In this document: positions 1 to 6,584 of the stretch, piece by piece
How positions within the stretch are numbered: position 1 is the stretch's first letter
How the letters are laid out: each line of letters begins with the position of its first letter
From: a virus
Lineage: Duplodnaviria; Heunggongvirae; Uroviricota; Caudoviricetes
IMG/VR virus record: IMGVR_UViG_2663762945_000004
Span: 1 to 6,584 of that record
Length of the DNA: 6,584 nt
Strand: one strand, 5' to 3'
Position numbers and translations under genes: made by a program
Notes under the pieces: model-generated
Told to the model about the DNA's origin: nothing
Seen by the model: only the letters and a program-made list of their open reading frames with translations
Database searches by the model: none

Positions 1-510
1 ATGCAGCTTAAGCTCCGGATACATAGCGTTAACTTCTGGCATTTTCATCAACGCTTCAACGATATGGCCGTCGAATGTTGCCATGTCTTCCTGCAACAAT
101 TCCTGTGCGCTAATCACCATATCAACAGTGATGTTTTCACATGTGTCGAACTTAACCATGACAGCGTTCTGTACTTCAGGGGCTAGGTTGTCAAAAGTGA
201 CGTTCATCGGATCTGATTCAGTCTCAACCGGGACAAAGGAAGCTGACTCCTCATCCCAGCGGTTTTCCTGCATATATTCAGCATCCCAGGAATCGAGGGC
301 AGGGCGGGGTATACCGGGTTTATCCTCGCAAACAAGAAATTTATAAGCGCAGTCCTGAGCAGCCGGATATTGCTCCAGGAATTGCCAGGTAAATTTGGCA
401 CGGGCGCGGCGTTCGTCGCCAGCTTCAATGGCAGTGGCTACAGCGACTGCACCTTCTTCCTTTATTGCCTGTTCGTCCGGAATAGCGGCGCAAATAAAGA
501 CTTTACTCAT
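1..510 (-). CDS. Hypothetical phage early-left protein, 3'-truncated by the window start (170 codons, no stop in window)
   Basis: Hand translation of the minus strand from ATG at 510-508 (GAGGT about 9 nt upstream) gives an uninterrupted frame to position 1: MSKVFICAAIPDEQAIKEEG...NAMYPELKLH. Absent from the ORF track because it has no stop in the window; the plus-strand ORFs 1..186 and 83..346 are its antisense shadows. No family recognised. Confidence 0.55.
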   Translation of the reverse strand, partial: MSKVFICAAIPDEQAIKEEGAVAVATAIEAGDERRARAKFTWQFLEQYPAAQDCAYKFLVCEDKPGIPRPALDSWDAEYMQENRWDEESASFVPVETESDPMNVTFDNLAPEVQNAVMVKFDTCENITVDMVISAQELLQEDMATFDGHIVEALMKMPEVNAMYPELKLH

Positions 511-589
511 GTTGTTTTAACCTCATTACAGATTTAAGGGTGAACAAATCCCTGCCATTGCTGGCATATAAAATGAAACCGGATATTAA

Positions 590-802
590 TTACGGCGCTG
601 TTTTAAGTCCTGCCGGGATTTCGTTATTATCCATGTGAATAACTTTATCGACCGGATAACAGTTGCCGGGAATTTTCTGTTCCGCTGCGGCAGCCGTGCA
701 TTCTTTCATTGAACCGTAAATGTCAATAACCAGATTAACAGGCTCGCCAGTATTAAGATAAACTGTCAGAGCGAGTGCAAATGCTGTATTCACTGCCAGC
801 AT
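590..802 (-). CDS. Small hypothetical protein (about 70 aa from internal Met; ORF extends to 847)
   Basis: Minus-strand ORF with stop at 590. Hydrophobic N-terminal stretch (MLAVNTAFALALTVYL) from the ATG at 802. Neither candidate start (847 or 802) has a well-spaced Shine-Dalgarno. Start at 802 would overlap the upstream ORF by 13 nt. Confidence 0.25.
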   Translation of the reverse strand: MLAVNTAFALALTVYLNTGEPVNLVIDIYGSMKECTAAAAEQKIPGNCYPVDKVIHMDNNEIPAGLKTAP

Positions 803-978
803 CCTTTTTGCATCAGACGTAAACGGGCCAGCATTGAAACAATGCATATTTGATTTAATAGCTCCCGTTCGTGTTTTCTCTTATTAATAGCATCTTCAGT
901 AAATACAGGGTTACTGATTCTGACACCAATTTCAAAGCAACCTTCAGACGTATTAACGTTTGGTAATAACGTTTCCAT
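790..978 (-). CDS. Small hypothetical protein (62 aa)
   Basis: ATG at 978 preceded by GAGGA with 7-nt spacing; the SD overlaps the TGA stop of the upstream Rha-family gene (989-991), suggesting co-transcription and coupling. No family recognised. Confidence 0.4.
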   Translation of the reverse strand: METLLPNVNTSEGCFEIGVRISNPVFTEDAINKRKHERELLNQICIVSMLARLRLMQKGCWQ

Positions 979-988
979 TATCGCGTCC

Positions 989-1546
989 TCAGCAATGAAT
1001 TTTGAGTAATTGCTCCACAGTCATATTTTTAATTGAGTTCCGGTTAACAAGAGTCCATCCCTGTTTTTCCAGATAAAACCGGAAAGTCTCCAGGGTACAG
1101 ACGAGAGCGCCATCAGGAACGGTTTCGGTGAATCTGATGTTGCCGCGTTCGTCGAAGTGAACAACCAGAGTGCGGCCATCGCCTGAAATTATTTTGTCAG
1201 TGGGTGGGGTGTTATTCTGGCACAGCTCGGCCTCCATGCGATCGAACTCAGCAATGTAGGCTTCTTTAAATGCAGCGGCTTTTTTGCCAGTGAATCCCAT
1301 CACCAGGAAAACGAAGCCGTTTTTGGTGATTTGGTACATTGGGAGTTTGCGTCCGGTTGAGTCGGTGTATTTGCTCGACACAAAATTGTGCTCAGTGAAT
1401 TTTGCTGAACAGTCCAGATTGCGAATTTTATCCAACACTCGTTCGTGGCGTTTGCCAAAGAACTCGGCGATCGCAACAGACGTAGTGACAGCGCGACCAT
1501 TTTCGATGGTTACGTCAGGGTGAGAAAGGGTAAGGGTAGTAGCCAT
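989..1546 (-). CDS. Rha-family phage regulatory protein (pRha domain), possible antirepressor-type regulator
   Basis: Translation from ATG at 1546 (GGAGG SD 7 nt upstream) gives MATTLTLSHPDVTIENGRAVTTSVAIAEFFGKRHERVLDKIRNLDCSAKFTEHNFVSSKYTDSTGRKLPMYQITKNGFVFLVMGF..., which I recognise as an N-terminal Phage_pRha-type domain. The track ORF continues in frame upstream to an ATG at 1843 (AGGTGAG SD), so the true start is ambiguous. I prefer 1546 because the pRha domain is normally N-terminal and the upstream extension contains a terminator-like hairpin. Confidence 0.7.
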   Translation of the reverse strand: MATTLTLSHPDVTIENGRAVTTSVAIAEFFGKRHERVLDKIRNLDCSAKFTEHNFVSSKYTDSTGRKLPMYQITKNGFVFLVMGFTGKKAAAFKEAYIAEFDRMEAELCQNNTPPTDKIISGDGRTLVVHFDERGNIRFTETVPDGALVCTLETFRFYLEKQGWTLVNRNSIKNMTVEQLLKIHC

Positions 1547-1715
1547 GATGGCAGCCTCCGCGATGAATTTGATTAACTCACCACCGAGGTTTTCCACGAC
1601 CATAAGGGTGGTGAGACGTACAGGGGTGGAAATACCGGTCATCACGGAACCCGGCCAGCCTTGCGGCAGCCCTGCACGCCCCACCATAATGCGAATGTGG
1701 CTGTGCTTAACGCAT

Positions 1716-1738
1716 AAAAAAACCGCCTGAGCGCGGTT
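1716..1738 (-). terminator. Putative intrinsic terminator on the minus strand (hairpin plus U-tract)
   Basis: Plus strand reads aaaaaaaccgcctgagcgcggtt. On the minus-strand transcript this is a stem AACCGC / GCGGUU (4 GC + 2 AU pairs) with a 6-nt loop, followed by a run of 7 U. The stem is short, so strength is uncertain. It lies about 170 nt upstream of the Rha start at 1546. Confidence 0.4.
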
Positions 1739-1865
1739 ATGCGCCGTGAATGATTTCGGGTTTCCACGCCCGGCACCCGTTTTATAAGGTGCAGGCGAAC
1801 TATAATTCCACCCGTTCTGGTTTTCAATAGCTACATTCAACATTTTCTCTCACCTTTCATCACCG

Positions 1866-2021
1866 AAGTGAATTTTGTGATGCGGTGCCTGGTGCCTCCA
1901 GGTGACGTTAACCAGTTAACAATTAACGCCGGATACAGAGAACCCACCCATAACACACTGTTTTTGGTTTTAACTGTTCCGCGTGCGCTTAGCCGCATTC
2001 ACCGCATCACAAAATTCACTT
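1866..2021. repeat. Perfect 22-bp inverted repeat (arms 1866-1887 and 2000-2021) flanking a 112-bp spacer
   Basis: Left arm aagtgaattttgtgatgcggtg is the exact reverse complement of right arm caccgcatcacaaaattcactt. The spacer contains a small hairpin (cctgg tgcct ccagg, 1888-1902) and two GTTAAC palindromes. No convincing ORF overlaps it. Confidence 0.85.
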
Positions 2022-2383
2022 TAAAAAGGGCGGCAGAGCAGTCACGGAGTAAAACTGATACCGCCAAACGTCACCAGAAAATTGATAACAGAGGGCGTTG
2101 CAGCGGAGTTGTCACTTAAGCGTATGGTCAACCTGACAACCCGGCGTCCTCAACGGGGGAAGGAATAACCCCGCCATACTTACCGCCGCGCCATTTCGCG
2201 GATTGCCACAACCGGAAGCGCACGGTCGAATTAAATTTAACGACAAAGTACAGAGAGACGAGCTTCTCCGTGCGTTTTCGTGTTATGCCCTGACTTTTCA
2301 GGGATATATCCTTTTCAGTAAACTGTCAGTGCCGGATTCTTATCCGTGTCCGGCGCACGCACTCTACCTCACCTGTGAATAAA

Positions 2384-2758
2384 TTAATGATTAATTGATA
2401 TTTTGTTGTTTGATTCAACTTTCCCATCGGATGTGTGATGCTTTAAATCACAGGAATTAATACTGCTTGCTGTAAAATGATTTTCAAGGGGAGCTATTCG
2501 AATCCCTTTCTTTTTCATTAACAAGCCAAATCCTTTATTAATGATGTCCATTAATTCCAGAAAGTATTTTTCATGTAAATCCTGGTTATCAGAGAGCTGC
2601 TTCTCTTCGTACAGCCCGATAAAGGCTCGGCGTACGTTACCGGATATATTGTCGATGGTTTCTTTTTCTACGGTACTCAGGTCAAGAGTCGCCAGTTGAG
2701 AGCGAACCACATTCGATGCCATTTCCTGGAATGGTACTGGTAAATCTTTAAATTCCAT
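2384..2758 (-). CDS. Hypothetical protein (124 aa from Met at 2758; ORF extends to 2770), unknown function
   Basis: ATG at 2758 has a GAGGT SD with about 6-nt spacing. The alternative ATG at 2770 overlaps the upstream ORF stop by 1 nt (TGATG). Protein MEFKDLPVPFQEMASNVVRSQLATLDLSTVEKETIDNISGNVRRAFIGLYEEK..., no family recognised. The 3' two-thirds (about 2381-2580) is about 30 percent GC by hand count, far below the neighbours. Confidence 0.55.
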   Translation of the reverse strand: MEFKDLPVPFQEMASNVVRSQLATLDLSTVEKETIDNISGNVRRAFIGLYEEKQLSDNQDLHEKYFLELMDIINKGFGLLMKKKGIRIAPLENHFTASSINSCDLKHHTSDGKVESNNKISINH

Positions 2759-2769
2759 CGTCAACCTCA

Positions 2770-2922
2770 TCAGTCGGAGTTTCTTGCTAACCAGCGACGC
2801 GCGCCAGCTTCGGTTTTAAACGTTTTGCTTTTGGTATACGTCATCGCGGTGAACGTACCGTCCTGGTTGGGGAACACGCCACATACCAGAGATTCGCTGT
2901 TGCCAAGATCGATAGTATCCAT
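2770..2922 (-). CDS. Small protein (50 aa from Met at 2922; in-frame ORF extends to 3003), resembles small YdaF/DUF1391-like prophage proteins
   Basis: ATG at 2922 preceded by GAGGT at 4-nt spacing. An upstream in-frame ATG at 3003 also has a GAGG SD, so the start is ambiguous. Sequence MDTIDLGNSESLVCGVFPNQDGTFTAMTYTKSKTFKTEAGARRWLARNSD; the YdaF/DUF1391 resemblance is from memory and unverified. Confidence 0.5.
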   Translation of the reverse strand: MDTIDLGNSESLVCGVFPNQDGTFTAMTYTKSKTFKTEAGARRWLARNSD

Positions 2923-3098
2923 GCTGACCTCATTTCCCCTTAACGCCGGGGTAGCGGAACAAAAACCTGCTGCATAGTTATTAAAGTTGAACCCTGCCGT
3001 CATGTTCTTACGCCTCGGGCTGGCTACTTAACCCCTGACCACTGCCTGGTAACTCGAAGTATTGCCCTGCATTCTGTGGGGCGGGGTGGGTGGCAGGT

Positions 3099-3156
3099 AT
3101 ATAATGTACTTTGTGTTCATTGTTGTAAAGTACATTTAGTACATTTTGTGTGTAAA
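3099..3156 (-). promoter_or_regulatory. Putative leftward early promoter with operator-like repeats (pL/oL analogue)
   Basis: Three copies of the 7-mer ATGTACT or its reverse complement at 3104-3110 (forward), 3129-3135 and 3138-3144 (reverse). A candidate minus-strand sigma70 promoter overlaps them: -35 TTTACA (plus 3129-3124), 17-bp spacer, -10 CATTAT (plus 3106-3101). A plus-strand TATAAT also occurs at 3100-3105. Confidence 0.35.
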
Positions 3157-3219
3157 AAAATGAGATGGGATAAAGTGAAGCACAAACCCGGAGGAAGGCG
3201 CTACCGGATTTATGCTGGT

Positions 3220-3639
3220 TTAAGAGGCTTTTTGTTTTTTCTTTCGTGCTAACTCTTCGTAAATTGCATTGTACTTCTGTTTTTTCTCTTCAAGAGTTTT
3301 TAAAAGTTCATCTGTCTCACTGTCAGGGAGCTCGTCCAGAAGGTCAATGATGATTTTTTGTCTTGGATTTAACTCCTGATAGAAACGTACCTGTCCACTT
3401 TCTTCTGTATCCTCTCCCAAAAGATAGGTTGGTGTTGTTCCTATTAGTGTTGCTAATTCCCTTAATTTCTCCCGGCGAGGAATTGTTTCGCCATTAAACC
3501 ATTTGCTAACCGCTTTTGGTGTTAATTTCATTCGACGGGCAATTTCTGCCTGCCTTCCATGTTGTTCATAACCAGCGTTTTCACAGGCTAGCGCAAGCCT
3601 ACTGGCGAACTCTTTACGCGCTTTATCTTCATGAACCAT
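3220..3639 (-). CDS. Prophage repressor, HTH XRE family (CI-like, 139 aa), no LexA-like S24 peptidase domain
   Basis: ORF-track protein has an N-terminal XRE-type helix-turn-helix (QAEIARRMKLTPKAVSKWFNGETIPRREKLRELATLIGTTPTYLLGED) and a short charged, probably helical C-terminus (EELARKKKQKAS). It is divergent from a Cro-like gene. No SD precedes the ATG, consistent with a leaderless transcript as for lambda cI from pRM. Confidence 0.85.
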   Translation of the reverse strand: MVHEDKARKEFASRLALACENAGYEQHGRQAEIARRMKLTPKAVSKWFNGETIPRREKLRELATLIGTTPTYLLGEDTEESGQVRFYQELNPRQKIIIDLLDELPDSETDELLKTLEEKKQKYNAIYEELARKKKQKAS

Positions 3640-3718
3640 AAGTTCAATGATATTCGCTCTTGAATGTACTGTCAGTTCTGTTATAGCATGTACTCAAAGT
3701 TCACATTGTGAGGGTGAT
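3640..3718. promoter_or_regulatory. Divergent promoter/operator region (pRM-like leftward, pR-like rightward)
   Basis: Two forward ATGTACT copies at 3664-3670 and 3688-3694. Candidate pR: -35 TTGAAT (3660-3665), 16-bp spacer, -10 TATAGC (3682-3687). Candidate pRM on the minus strand: -35 CTGACA (plus 3675-3670), 17-bp spacer, -10 TATCAT (plus 3652-3647), ending about 7 nt before the repressor ATG. An 11-bp perfect palindrome TCACATTGTGA (3701-3711) sits just before the cro-like SD. Confidence 0.45.
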
Positions 3719-3973
3719 ATGAACCAGAAAACACTTGAAGATGTAATCAAAACTGTTCGCGTTGCTGTTGTGGCCGACGTTTGTGGTGTCAGCCAAAGAG
3801 CAATCTATAAATGGATGGATAACGGAAAATTGCCTCGCACAGAATATACCGGCGAAACAAATTACGCTGAAAAAATCGCTCTTGCATCAAACGGATTATT
3901 TTCTGCCGATGCAATTTTAACTATTGGCAGGAATAAAACTACTACGAAAAAGCTGATGGGAGTTGATTCATGA
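3719..3973 (+). CDS. Cro-like HTH regulator, YdaS family (84 aa)
   Basis: ATG at 3719 preceded by GAGGGTG. Protein MNQKTLEDVIKTVRVAVVADVCGVSQRAIYKWMDNGKLPRTEYTGETNYAEKIALASNGLFSADAILTIG... has the Cro/YdaS-type HTH pattern. Divergent from the repressor. Its TGA stop overlaps the next gene start (ATGA at 3970-3973). The track ORF starts upstream at 3647 but lacks an SD there. Confidence 0.8.
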   Translation: MNQKTLEDVIKTVRVAVVADVCGVSQRAIYKWMDNGKLPRTEYTGETNYAEKIALASNGLFSADAILTIGRNKTTTKKLMGVDS

Positions 3974-4395
3974 AAATCAAGCATGAACACATCCGCATGG
4001 CGATGAATGCCTGGGCGCATCCGGACGGCGAAAAAGTACCGGCTGCGAAAATTACCAAAGCGTATTTCGAGCTGGGAATGACGTTCCCGGAACTGTATGA
4101 CGACAGCCATCCGGAAGCCCTGGCTCGCAATACTCAGAAAATTTTCCGCTGGGTGGAGAAAGACACCCCTGATGCGGTTAAAAAAATTCAGGCGTTGTTA
4201 CCAGCTATCGAAAAAGCAATGCCACCTCTGCTGGTGGCCCGAATGCGCAGTCATAGCTCAGCCTATTTTCGGGAACTAGTGGAGACGCGGGAACGACTGG
4301 TGAGAGACGCTGATGATTTTGTCGCAGTGGCGATCGCTGGTTTCAACCAGATGAATCGTGGTGGCCCTGCAGGAAATATTGTGGCTGTGCATTGA
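3970..4395 (+). CDS. ydaT: YdaT-family protein (CII-like regulator; family historically annotated as a putative toxin), 141 aa
   Basis: Protein begins MKIKHEHIRMAMNAWAHPDGEKVPAAKITKAYFELGMTFPELYDDSHPEALARNTQKIFRWVEKD..., which I recognise as the YdaT family of Rac-like prophages. Start overlaps the upstream stop by 4 nt, indicating translational coupling. Confidence 0.78.
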   Translation: MKIKHEHIRMAMNAWAHPDGEKVPAAKITKAYFELGMTFPELYDDSHPEALARNTQKIFRWVEKDTPDAVKKIQALLPAIEKAMPPLLVARMRSHSSAYFRELVETRERLVRDADDFVAVAIAGFNQMNRGGPAGNIVAVH

Positions 4396-4466
4396 CTCGC
4401 AATATTCATACCGGATCGCTTCCGGCAATTTGTGAGTAAAAAGATTCGGTATCAAAAGAGGTGAGT

Positions 4467-5228
4467 ATGGCTAACGCCTGGCTCAGATTATGGCATGACA
4501 TGCCAAATGACCCTAAGTGGCGAACAATTGCCAGGGTGTCAGGGCAGCCAATTGCAACAGTGATGGCAGTGTATATCCACCTCCTGGTGAGCGCGTCACG
4601 AAATGTCACGCGAGGTCACATTGAGGTCACGACAGAAGATTTGGCAAGTGCGCTCGACGTGACAGAAGAGGTAATTGATTCAATTTTGCAGACGATGCAG
4701 GGGCGGGTACTTGATGGTGATTTAATCACTGGATGGGAAAAACGCCAGGTGCTTAAAGAGGACAACGGCAATATTTCGCAAACCGCAAAATCTCCTGCAG
4801 AGCGCAAGAGGGCGCAGCGAGAGAGGGAAAGAAAGCGGGAACAAAATGGCGATTGTCACGGCGCGTCACGAAATGTCACGCATATGTCACGACGAGTCAC
4901 GACAGATAAAGATACAGATAAAGATACAGATCAAGAAGATCAAAACACTATGGTCCATGGCGTAAAAAACGCCACGAACCAGGCAGGGGATGTTCAGACC
5001 GTCAATCTTGGTCAGCCAGCAGGCACGACACCGGAAGCCGATTCAGCGTATGCGCTGAAAGCCGATTCGGGCGCTGTGCAGCAGGTGATGACCGCAAGGC
5101 CGGAGCAATCACACCAACTGCAGCAGCCCGAAGCCGATTCCGCCATTCAGCGGGAAGCCGATCGGGTAGTCCCGGAAAACACCGGGCAGTCTGTGGGACG
5201 AGTGGATTACCGGAACTCGGGCTGGTGA
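4467..5228 (+). CDS. Replication initiator-like protein (lambda O analogue) with iteron arrays inside its coding sequence
   Basis: ATG at 4467 with AGAGGTG upstream (the track starts at GTG 4461). N-terminus MANAWLRLWHDMPNDPKWRTIARVSGQPIATVMAVYIHLLVSASRN... followed by a winged-helix-like segment (TEDLASALDVTEEVIDSILQTMQGRVL). An acidic TDKDTDKDTDQEDQ linker is encoded by a tandem repeat. Two GTCAC iteron arrays lie inside the gene, as the lambda origin lies inside O. The family name is not verified. Confidence 0.65.
   Translation: MANAWLRLWHDMPNDPKWRTIARVSGQPIATVMAVYIHLLVSASRNVTRGHIEVTTEDLASALDVTEEVIDSILQTMQGRVLDGDLITGWEKRQVLKEDNGNISQTAKSPAERKRAQRERERKREQNGDCHGASRNVTHMSRRVTTDKDTDKDTDQEDQNTMVHGVKNATNQAGDVQTVNLGQPAGTTPEADSAYALKADSGAVQQVMTARPEQSHQLQQPEADSAIQREADRVVPENTGQSVGRVDYRNSGW
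4592..4636. repeat. Iteron array 1: four GTCAC(G) direct repeats at 10-11-bp spacing
   Basis: GTCAC begins at 4596, 4606, 4616 and 4627. The units are gtcacgaaat, gtcacgcgag, gtcacattgag and gtcacgacag. Confidence 0.6.
4855..4905. repeat. Iteron array 2: five GTCAC(G) direct repeats at 10-11-bp spacing (candidate replication origin core)
   Basis: GTCAC begins at 4855, 4865, 4875, 4886 and 4896. A 21-bp segment GCGCGTCACGAAATGTCACGC is shared exactly with array 1 (4592-4612 and 4861-4881). The array is immediately followed by an AT-rich tandem repeat. Confidence 0.6.
4902..4940. repeat. Tandem 12-bp repeat (acagataaagat twice, then a degenerate third copy), AT-rich, adjacent to iteron array 2
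   Basis: acagataaagat at 4902-4913 and 4914-4925, then acagatcaagaagat. It encodes the TDKDTDKDTDQEDQ linker and is placed like the AT-rich unwinding region next to the lambda ori iterons. Confidence 0.6.
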
Positions 5229-6229
5229 TCGTTAAGCCGGGCCGTGAATCCATGCCGGTATTCCACAATACCCGGGTACTGGTGGAGCCGGAACCGAAAA
5301 GCATGCGTAATCTGCCGTCCGGGGTCGTTCCTGCCGTTCGCCAGCCGCTGGCGGAGGATAAATCATTACTGCCATTTTTCAGCGACGAACGAGTGATTCG
5401 TGCTGCTGGTGGCGCTGGCGCATTGTCTGACTGGTTACTGCGCCATGTTAAATCCTGCCAGTGGCCACACGGCGATTATCACCACAGTGAAACCGTCATT
5501 CACCGTTATGGTACCGGCGCAATGGTGTTGTGCTGGCACTGCGACAACCAGCTGCGCGACCAGACCTCCGAATCACTCGGGCAACTTGCTCACCAAAACC
5601 TGTCTGCATGGATGATTGACGTCATACGCCATGCAATGAATGGCTCGCAGGAACGGGAATTATCGCTGGCTGAATTATCCTGGTGGGCGGTCCGCAATCA
5701 GGTGGCGGACGCGCTACCGGAAGCGGTATTACGTCGTTCGCTGGGGTTGCGTGCGGAAAAAATCCGCTCAATGTACCGTGAAAGCGACATCGTACCGGGA
5801 GAGCAGACCGCCACCAGCATACTGAAACAGCGCACAAAAAATCTTGCGCCGCTGCCTCACGCCCACCAGCAACAGAACCCACCACAGGAAAAGACGGTGG
5901 TCAGCATTGCCGTTGATCCTGAGTCTCCGGAATCTTTCATGAAACGACCTAAACGTCGCCGCTGGGTTAACGAGAAATACACACGCTGGGTGAAGACACA
6001 GCCGTGTGCGTGTTGTGGTAAGCCAGCCGACGATCCCCATCACCTGATTGGTCATGGTCAGGGCGGAATGGGGACAAAATCTCACGATATTTTCACGCTA
6101 CCGCTGTGTCGGGAGCATCACAACGAGCTTCATGCGGATCCTCTGGCGTTCGAAGAAAAGCATGGTTCTCAGGTTGATTTAATTTTTCGTTTTCTTGATC
6201 ACGCCTTTGCAACTGGCGTGCTTGGGTAA
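5225..6229 (+). CDS. DUF968-family prophage protein with a C-terminal Cys/His HNH-like motif (putative nuclease or zinc-binding)
   Basis: The track ORF starts at GTG 5225, overlapping the upstream TGA (GTGA); an alternative ATG is at 5252, and neither has a clear SD. The C-terminus CACCGKPADDPHHLIGHGQGGMGTKSHDIFTLPLCREHHNELH matches the motif I associate with DUF968 (YdfU-like) proteins. Family assignment is from memory. Confidence 0.7.
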   Translation: MIVKPGRESMPVFHNTRVLVEPEPKSMRNLPSGVVPAVRQPLAEDKSLLPFFSDERVIRAAGGAGALSDWLLRHVKSCQWPHGDYHHSETVIHRYGTGAMVLCWHCDNQLRDQTSESLGQLAHQNLSAWMIDVIRHAMNGSQERELSLAELSWWAVRNQVADALPEAVLRRSLGLRAEKIRSMYRESDIVPGEQTATSILKQRTKNLAPLPHAHQQQNPPQEKTVVSIAVDPESPESFMKRPKRRRWVNEKYTRWVKTQPCACCGKPADDPHHLIGHGQGGMGTKSHDIFTLPLCREHHNELHADPLAFEEKHGSQVDLIFRFLDHAFATGVLG

Positions 6230-6241
6230 AAGAGGTGACTG

Positions 6242-6584
6242 ATGATCATAGATTTGGTTTTACCTTACCCGCCGACGGTGAACACTTACTGGCGACGCCG
6301 TGGCAGCACATATTTTATCTCGGAGGAGGGAAAGCGTTATCGCCGGGCTGTGGCGCTTATTGTTCGCCAGCAGCGGCTGAAATTAAGCCTGTCCGGAAGG
6401 CTGGCGATAAAGGTGATTGCAGAGCCACCGGATAAGCGTCGTCGAGACCTGGACAATATCCTGAAAGCACCGCTGGATGCGCTGACGCATGCGGGAGTGT
6501 TAATGGACGATGAGCAGTTTGATGAAATCAATATCGTTCGTGGTCAGCCAGTATCTGGTGGACGTATGGGGGTGAAGATTTACC
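6242..6584 (+). CDS. rusA: Crossover junction endodeoxyribonuclease RusA (Holliday junction resolvase), 3'-truncated by the window end
   Basis: Hand translation from ATG 6242 (AGAGGTG SD 4 nt upstream): MIIDLVLPYPPTVNTYWRRRGSTYFISEEGKRYRRAVALIVRQQRLKLSLSGRLAIKVIAEPPDKRRRDLDNILKAPLDALTHAGVLMDDEQFDEINIVRGQPVSGGRMGVKIY. This has the RusA motifs (PPSxNxYxR, DxRRRDxDN, DD). It is missing from the ORF track because there is no stop in the window; track ORF 6235..6435 is in the wrong frame. Confidence 0.85.
   Translation, partial: MIIDLVLPYPPTVNTYWRRRGSTYFISEEGKRYRRAVALIVRQQRLKLSLSGRLAIKVIAEPPDKRRRDLDNILKAPLDALTHAGVLMDDEQFDEINIVRGQPVSGGRMGVKIY

Follow-up and report, generated by a model that had tools for sequence, protein, structure and literature searches.

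A DUF1391 gene and a chimeric 124-aa gene at the head of a predicted dicBF-type operon in a lambdoid prophage

Genes and features of the locus

The DNA analysed here (the window) is a stretch of 6,584 nucleotides, positions 1 to 6,584 of the IMG/VR virus record IMGVR_UViG_2663762945_000004. A preliminary description of the window had singled out two minus-strand ORFs, of 50-77 and then 124-128 aa, that either overlap at stop and start or are separated by 11 nt. Both are present, the small ORF at 2770-3003 or 2770-2922 and the large ORF at 2384-2770 or 2384-2758. The features that bear on them are listed below, from high to low coordinates.

3970-4395, divergent from the repressor: YdaT/CII-like gene (Pfam/PHROG)
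3647-3973, divergent from the repressor: Cro-like gene (Pfam/PHROG)
3220-3639, minus strand: prophage immunity repressor with DicA-like HTH, 139 aa (Pfam HTH_3, 1.8e-9; PHROG transcriptional regulator)
3101-3136, minus strand: dicBp/PL-type promoter candidate (-35 TTTACA at 3129-3124, -10 CATTAT at 3106-3101), overlapped by operator-like repeats
2770-3003, minus strand: long form of the small ORF, 77 aa; a start at an internal ATG gives the 50-aa form
2770-2922, minus strand: DUF1391 gene (YdfA/YdaF homologue), 50 aa (Pfam PF07151, 97.3 bits; 91% nucleotide identity to K-12 ydfA)
2759-2769, minus strand: intercistronic gap of 11 nt carrying the GAGG Shine-Dalgarno of the 124-aa gene (...GAC TGA tgaggttgacg ATG GAA...)
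2384-2770, minus strand: long form of the large ORF, 128 aa, with a TGATG overlap with the small ORF
2384-2758, minus strand: 124-aa gene, starting 11 nt past the DUF1391 gene
2600-2758, minus strand: codons 1-53 of the 124-aa gene, conserved N-terminal two-helix 'MEFKDLP' domain (45% GC; dN/dS 0.18)
2384-2599, minus strand: codons 54-124 and stop of the 124-aa gene, AT-rich (31.9% GC) and lineage-specific, with the third helix (residues 61-83) and the tail (85-124)
2080-2383, minus strand: non-coding spacer, homologue of the K-12 ydfC-dicF untranslated region (DicF precursor)
2028-2079, minus strand: DicF small RNA (Rfam RF00039, full length, 76.7 bits against a gathering score of 48)
790-978, minus strand: dicB, cell-division inhibitor (Pfam DicB, 131 bits)
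590-847, minus strand: DUF1482/YdfD-like gene, after dicB (Pfam DUF1482, 70 bits)

The short forms of 50 and 124 aa are the better gene models, because a GAGG lies 6-7 nt 5' of each short-form ATG (...GGGGAAATGAGGTCAGC-ATG for the DUF1391 gene, TGA-TGAGGTTGACG-ATG for the 124-aa gene), homologues in the RefSeq/PGAP annotation are called as 50 aa plus 124 aa with an 11-nt gap, the Pfam DUF1391 model does not align before residue 29 of the 77-aa form nor PHROG 6937 before residue 5 of the 128-aa form, and in 7 of 77 related loci an in-frame stop interrupts the 81-nt 5' extension of the small ORF. The 77-aa form, which reaches to 3003, is probably an over-extension. A plus-strand ORF of 59 aa (2203-2382) was considered as a convergent partner gene and rejected, being broken in 39 of 49 full-length homologous copies.

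The small ORF had been called YdaF-like, and its match to the Pfam family DUF1391 (E = 4e-28) agrees with a YdfA/YdaF-type protein. This protein is highly conserved, with at least 82% identity in the best 120 matches listed, which come from Escherichia, Shigella and Salmonella. Its AF2 model (pLDDT 82.9) consists of three strands and a C-terminal helix. Neither a sequence search nor Foldseek returned a PDB entry with E below 0.3; resemblances to PH-domain fragments and to the N-terminal domain of lambda Int were weak and not significant. A search of the literature for ydfA, ydaF or the MEFKDLP family (see below) found no characterising paper. The 'ydfA' of IncI plasmids (PMC12111858) has the name alone in common and is taken as unrelated.

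The promoter candidate, some 170 nt before the first codon of DUF1391, has a consensus score of 9/12, and since the scan returned 3 sites where 3.3 were expected, it does not by itself stand above chance. A perfect 10-nt inverted repeat (AATGTACTTT/AAAGTACATT) at 3103-3112 and 3127-3136 flanks the candidate, and the motif ATGTACTnnnnnGTTC at 3104-3118 occurs again at 3664-3678 and 3688-3702, in the repressor/cro intergenic region. Repeats shared in this way are the pattern expected of an OL-type operator set, and the repressor may bind at 3101-3136. The consensus scan found no promoter-like site for the 124-aa gene itself between 2759 and 2930, and no boxA was found in the leader. The repressor, the promoter candidate and the operator repeats bear out the earlier placement of the pair beside the repressor and at the head of a leftward operon.

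The window thus reads, in order, DicA-like repressor, operator-covered promoter candidate, ydfA-like gene, 124-aa gene, untranslated DicF precursor, DicF, an inserted C4/isrK-Rha module, DicB and YdfD. The repressor also matches the NCBIfam DicA subfamily at 2e-15, under that model's cutoff. Two blocks align closely with K-12 DNA: 2777-2960 matches ydfA at 91% nucleotide identity, and 1869-2377 matches Qin at 92% over the segment that begins 43 nt past ydfC and runs through dicF up to dicB. Because the repressor, DUF1391, DicF, DicB and DUF1482 follow the K-12 Qin order and are accompanied by these blocks of 91-92% identity, the two ORFs are, on gene order and alignment, the first two predicted cistrons of a dicBF-type early-left operon in a Qin/Rac-like lambdoid E. 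coli prophage. What marks such an operon is found here: an adjacent DicA/CI-like repressor with a divergent Cro-like gene, a promoter-proximal ydfA, and DicF inside an extended untranslated spacer, with dicB and ydfD after it. The identity of the locus as a known operon had been missed in the preliminary description.

The likeness to the dicBF operon of K-12 Qin (dicA, ydfA-ydfB-ydfC-dicF-dicB-ydfD) lies in gene order, strand logic and a DicA-like repressor upstream. The window differs in three respects: a single 124-aa gene stands in place of ydfB and ydfC, a module of C4/isrK-Rha antirepressor type lies between DicF and dicB, and the repressor has a different immunity specificity, the promoter/operator region being without homology to K-12. 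The block between the two K-12-like stretches, 2378-2776, is almost exactly the 124-aa gene and occupies the slot of ydfB-ydfC. In Rac (racR-ydaG-ydaF(-sieB)-kilR), too, a DUF1391 gene (ydaF) is among the first leftward genes past the repressor and before the cell-division inhibitor, and some loci with the 124-aa gene bear RacR itself. In Rac, unlike in the window, ydaF comes after ydaG and is itself followed by a convergent sieB, and tblastn found no MEFKDLP-domain gene there.

In published work, ydfA, ydfB and ydfC are small promoter-proximal genes of unknown function, and the characterised products of dicBF are DicF, DicB and YdfD only (PMC5069750, PMC10448788). The K-12 promoter dicBp is repressed by DicA, and the ydfABC-dicF transcript is processed to DicF (PMC10448788, PMC5069750). 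In the window, transcription would likewise start at the promoter candidate upstream of the DUF1391 gene. Under the DicA-like repressor there would be little expression of the operon in the lysogen, and derepression would release it as at K-12 dicBp; such control is suggested because the promoter candidate overlaps operator-like repeats that also occur at the repressor/cro promoters. One polycistronic mRNA would then give the ydfA-like protein and the 124-aa protein from separate GAGG ribosome-binding sites, the 3' untranslated part of the same mRNA would be the DicF precursor, and the transcript would run on to dicB.

Coding potential and composite structure of the 124-aa gene

Selection on the large ORF was assessed with 38 distinct 124-aa alleles, out of 78 sequences, by comparing dN/dS over the six reading frames. 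The annotated frame was the only one without stops and had the lowest dN/dS of the six in every segment (0.18 in the N-terminal part, 0.18 in the middle and 0.33 in the tail); these values are pooled pairwise estimates from related sequences and are therefore indicative rather than a formal test. The start, the Shine-Dalgarno and the length of 124 aa are kept across the 38 alleles. Judged by this pattern of substitution, the 124-aa ORF is a genuine coding sequence under purifying selection. Of 5426 complete E. coli genomes, 672 (~12%) have it at a coverage of at least 80%, and it is labelled 'hypothetical protein' throughout the source databases. Copies with a truncation or with internal stops also occur.

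The ORF might instead be a functionless passenger, a remnant retained only through its location in the DicF precursor transcript. A protein without a known domain, a tail that is modelled at low confidence by AF2 and evolves fast, and the truncated and internally stopped copies would fit such a remnant. Purifying selection in the annotated frame over the entire ORF would not, nor would a start, a Shine-Dalgarno and a length that are constant in 38 alleles, nor an N-terminal domain kept down to ~25-35% identity across Enterobacterales genera, and we regard a passenger as very improbable.

The gene changes in composition along its length. Its codons 1-53 have a GC content of 45.3%, and the last 71 codons with the stop 31.9%. 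Measured in 216-nt intervals over the whole window (mean 48.5%, sd 6.2%), this stretch is the lowest, and all intervals with GC at or below 31.9%, 0.4% of the total, start at 2359-2384. A fall in GC over the 3' two thirds of the gene had been described; the fall is real and slightly shorter, at ~57% of the gene.

The large ORF had also been said to belong to no recognisable family, and searches of the 124-aa protein against Pfam, NCBIfam and PADLOC indeed gave no match. The profile and structure searches were likewise empty: the best match of the N-terminal-domain profile among PDB sequences had E 0.22, which is noise, and the best Foldseek match of the 124-aa AF2 model in the PDB had E 3. PHROG 6937 matches the protein end to end (1.8e-76), and residues 1-55/64 also match PHROGs 1363, 2151, 9419 and 33007. 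All five are annotated 'unknown function' and are sequence clusters, so that they name a family and explain nothing. Against BFVD, the sole Foldseek match was a 52-aa family member of Stx phage phi191, which superposes on the N-terminal hairpin (TMt 0.86).

A profile search of 1.84 billion representatives returned 62 clusters only, all of them small proteins of prophage type. Beyond the close full-length or fragmentary relatives, what these clusters have in common is the first ~52 residues, with the consensus MEFKDLPxxIQxIAAxxLxxxL...KEPxxxLARxVRxAFxxLY, in which L6, P7, Q11, A14 and F46 are invariant in an alignment of 30 members. Pfam has no entry for this domain. Many MEFKDLP members are stand-alone proteins of 50-68 aa, from Salmonella, Klebsiella, Raoultella, Serratia, Hafnia, Yersinia, Kluyvera and Atlantibacter. 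Others carry unrelated C-termini and reach up to 208 aa; some of these C-termini also exist as separate PHROGs, and one protein joins a YdfC-like N-terminus to the MEFKDLP domain. The label 'formyltetrahydrofolate deformylase' on some members of 63-68 aa is a mis-annotation that no NCBIfam model supports.

The AF2 model of the 124-aa protein has a modest mean pLDDT of 61.6, with helices at residues 8-23, 32-56 and 61-83 and a low-confidence tail (85-124). The two N-terminal helices reach a pLDDT of about 80, and with its N-terminal motif and this predicted two-helix hairpin the protein falls within the MEFKDLP family. It is mildly acidic (pI 5.9; N-terminal domain pI 4.65), and no membrane segment was predicted, the maximum 19-residue hydropathy (KD19) being 0.51.

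The earlier suggestion of a chimeric gene is supported by these data, because the break between the conserved N-terminal domain and the variable, lineage-specific C-terminal part coincides with the drop in GC; the edges of the cassette lie exactly at the gene ends. At the level of the alignments, the 124-aa gene is shown to be an exchangeable cassette in the ydfB-ydfC slot, and its C-terminal part is shown to have been gained by recombination.

Pairing with DUF1391 across prophages

In 81 informative loci with the 124-aa gene, DUF1391 lies directly upstream in 51, ydfB-ydfC stand between the two genes in 26, and ydfC is present without DUF1391 in the remaining 4. The 124-aa gene is thus not adjacent to DUF1391 at 30 of the 81 loci; at the other 51 the 11-nt gap (-164 start-to-start) is identical. 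In complete E. coli genomes, DUF1391 DNA was found at 6188 places spread over 3681 genomes, and the 124-aa gene at 985 places spread over 891. Among 82 loci, the 124-aa gene is always upstream of DicF and/or DicB where the DNA on that side was available. The repressor upstream varies among loci (DicA-like, RacR, the type seen in the window, and others), and three arrangements occur.

Five distant homologues (P0163, P0160, P0154, P0172 and P0173) are promoter-proximal, just downstream of an HTH or S24 repressor, and four of the five, on longer contigs, lie upstream of Kil, KilR and ExoVIII. DUF1391 was found at the P0154 locus only, the other four of the five loci with upstream flank being without it; a further homologue, P0159, was recovered on a 1.5-kb contig only and is uninformative upstream. 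In an Stx phage, the N-terminal-domain homologue is in the early-left region, far from the repressor and downstream of recombination genes, and the promoter-proximal position is therefore not universal. Small convergent ORFs found in related prophages were considered as a conserved partner and rejected, as they belong to unrelated families and have no Pfam match.

We conclude that DUF1391 and the 124-aa gene are paired only loosely, with partners that can be exchanged, and form no obligate module, so that the check on conserved pairing proposed in the preliminary description came out negative. This bears directly on its suggestion of a type II toxin-antitoxin pair, in which DUF1391 would be the antitoxin and the translationally coupled 124-aa protein the toxin. 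The small-then-larger co-directional layout with an 11-nt gap, or possibly a TGATG overlap, does resemble such a pair, and the exact spacing is kept in 51 of the 81 loci. Conserved co-occurrence, however, is lacking at the 30 non-adjacent loci, both those with ydfB-ydfC in between and those without DUF1391. DUF1391 is found at far more places than the 124-aa gene, and most distant homologues lack it. Neither protein has a toxin or antitoxin family in Pfam, NCBIfam or PADLOC, or a PDB fold at E below 0.3, and the putative promoter appears to bear operators of the prophage-repressor type rather than those of an autoregulated toxin-antitoxin promoter. In K-12, moreover, inducing the ydfA-containing operon with dicF and dicB deleted and ydfABC and ydfD intact is not toxic (PMC5069750). 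A toxin-antitoxin pair is accordingly a highly improbable account of the locus, and the 124-aa protein and DUF1391 do not make up a self-contained two-gene system.

The pair had also been put forward as a defence system. The 124-aa gene might be a moron expressed in the lysogen for superinfection exclusion or abortive infection, like rexAB or sieB. An AT-rich 3' part is typical of morons, the site beside the repressor is the classical location of exclusion genes, and related prophages have a hotspot of small convergent ORFs at the 3' end of this gene family, comparable to sieB in Rac. DicB, another product of the operon, reportedly protects against phages (PMC10448788). Against a moron, the conserved part of the gene is the N-terminal domain and not the AT-rich part, and the gene stands on the operon's strand within what is probably a repressor-controlled operon, with no promoter-like site of its own at 2759-2930. 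The protein has no membrane segment, unlike SieB or RexB, and no SieB Pfam match, and with the PADLOC-DB v2 defence models 0 families were found at E up to 1 for both proteins. With no PADLOC match, no membrane segment and a place in an operon that the repressor would silence, defence is an unsupported label and a lysogen-expressed exclusion gene an unlikely one. To call the 124-aa gene a host-interaction gene, as had also been done, is reasonable. In K-12, some expression from this operon is reported for stationary phase and for a subpopulation of cells (PMC10448788), and the gene may have a role in the lysogen.

Proposed role of the 124-aa protein

The best explanation, to which we give a probability of about 0.6, is that the two ORFs open a repressor-controlled dicBF operon as its first cistrons, with the 124-aa gene as a chimeric cassette for a soluble early accessory factor. 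The protein would be small, soluble and non-enzymatic and made early after derepression. From its size, predicted fold and position, and by analogy, it probably acts by binding a protein of the host or of the phage; the helical hairpin would do the binding, and the variable C-terminus would tune its specificity. Family, PDB-sequence and fold searches gave no match to an enzyme or defence family.

Ral, Kil, CIII and the Ea proteins, accessory products of lambda's PL operon, are small and come from non-essential, repressor-controlled early-left genes with a mosaic distribution. The 124-aa protein resembles them in position and size only, and by this analogy it could be an accessory host-modulating or phage-development factor of the Ral/Kil/CIII kind. 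Compared directly, CIII and the 124-aa protein had no detectable similarity (hhalign probability 1%, with an approximate CIII sequence).

A role in regulation was weighed against this, the protein acting either on the lysis-lysogeny decision, as a CIII-like protease inhibitor that protects the YdaT/CII-like activator, or on operon expression, by antitermination past DicF. The gene is promoter-proximal in many prophages that have YdaS/YdaT (Cro/CII-like) genes, the family members that stand alone (50-68 aa) are comparable to CIII in size, and a terminator past DicF needs read-through for dicB to be reached (PMC5069750). Set against these points are the absence of detectable similarity to lambda CIII and of the arginine-rich motif and nut site of an N-type antiterminator, the N-terminal domain being acidic and the leader without boxA. 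The gene is also absent from many functional-looking dicBF operons, that of K-12 included, and is therefore not required for operon expression. Taken together, we consider a regulator of this kind doubtful.

The accessory-factor reading can be extended, tentatively, to the MEFKDLP proteins at large. They may be an undescribed family of early-left-operon effectors in lambdoid prophages of Enterobacterales, whose hairpin binds one conserved target or dimerises, and whose C-terminal modules, often together with convergent morons, are swapped by recombination so as to diversify specificity; the 124-aa protein would be one variant. Such effectors could serve in host takeover or counter-defence.

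The 124-aa gene is thus far an uncharacterised example, within an operon that is itself known, of a familiar kind of gene, the small accessory genes near the promoter in lambdoid early-left operons. The analysis removes a tempting toxin-antitoxin or defence label as unsupported. It assigns a very common 'hypothetical protein', carried by roughly one complete E. coli genome in eight, to a defined regulatory setting, the DicF/DicB operon with its control of cell division, metabolism and phage sensitivity, and it shows the promoter-proximal part of the dicBF operon to be a site of cassette exchange. If the conserved hairpin does target a host protein, the family would add one small phage effector.

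Mosaic structure of the window and its replication gene

The exact mosaic of the window was found in no complete E. coli genome, the best whole-window match among them reaching 80-81% coverage at 96-97% identity. One related locus, L080, combines the repressor type of the window with ydfA-ydfB-ydfC and a 124-aa gene 80% identical to that of the window, an arrangement that illustrates how the immunity region and the operon cassettes would reassort freely. ORF 4461-5228, whose relatives are annotated as phage replisome organizer, contains closely spaced GTCACG/TCACGA repeats in two clusters (4593-4632 and 4855-4903). The clusters have the look of origin iterons lying within the replication gene, as iterons do in the lambda O gene.

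Neighbors and naming of the MEFKDLP-domain family

The gene encoding the MEFKDLP domain, the conserved N-terminal two-helix domain of the 124-aa protein, very often has ydfC as its direct upstream neighbor, separated by a 22-nt gap (L006 3760-4408, L007 3760-4408 and 30 of the loci L008-L089). No ydfC is present in the window itself. In one 149-aa database protein (P0162) a YdfC-like N-terminus is fused to the MEFKDLP domain, and together these arrangements hint that YdfC and the family are functionally linked. Stand-alone members of 63-68 aa from Hafnia, Serratia, Salmonella and Yersinia (P0172, P0381, P0407, P0410, P0430) carry the name 'formyltetrahydrofolate deformylase' in the NCBI and UniRef databases. 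This is very likely a propagated mis-annotation, because no NCBIfam model supports the name on these members.

In related prophages, the MEFKDLP-domain gene is overlapped or abutted at its 3' end by a small opposite-strand ORF. These ORFs are listed below together with the convergent ORF of the window:

Opposite-strand ORFs at the 3' ends of MEFKDLP-domain genes
2203-2382 (window), plus strand, 59-aa ORF with a TTG start, convergent with the 124-aa gene at its 3' end
L090 6295-6588, small ORF
L094 6271-6507, small ORF
L097 5377-5595, small ORF
L099 5189-5467, small ORF
L100 1080-1301, small ORF
L006 4386-4619, small ORF
L001 3744-4019, small ORF

The plus-strand ORF of the window was rejected as a gene because stops or frameshifts break 39 of its 49 full-length homologous copies. 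The ORFs of the seven related loci belong to several families, unrelated to one another, and none has a Pfam match. This suggests that the 3' end of the gene is a moron-insertion hotspot, comparable to the position of sieB in Rac, and such insertion may be a source of the variable C-termini of the family. In strain Ec-U5 (L001 3997-4317), the homologue of the 124-aa gene has become a pseudogene, interrupted by a stop at codon 52; its 3' end differs and is overlapped by a 91-aa opposite-strand gene.

RNA elements between DicF and dicB

RNA elements and inverted repeat of the DicF-dicB interval
1866-1887 and 2003-2024, immediately 3' of DicF, long-range inverted repeat with arms GTGAATTTTGTGATGCGGTG / CACCGCATCACAAAATTCAC
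1716-1792, minus strand, isrK (Rfam, 65.4 bits, strong)
1604-1691, minus strand, C4 antisense RNA (Rfam, 77.6 bits, strong)

The region of the inverted repeat shares homology with the K-12 dicF-dicB spacer and has a sub-threshold STnc100 match (1874-2016) between the arms; the repeat may correspond to the stem at which the long form of DicF is described as being processed by RNase III. A sub-threshold Rfam match to the c4 target element also lies within 1604-1805 (minus strand). The C4, isrK and c4 target element matches all fall in the 5' third of ORF 989-1843 (284 aa), a mechanical call; for the real Rha/antirepressor gene, the ATG at 1546 (MATTLTL..., GGAGG upstream) is the probable start. 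The C4/isrK-Rha insert between DicF and dicB looks like an RNA-controlled antirepressor module, resembling those of the P1 immI or Gifsy isrK type. The Pfam Phage_ASH match (residues 14-108 of the 284-aa ORF) coincides exactly with the C4/isrK RNA genes, and the ASH protein family may in part represent translated RNA genes.
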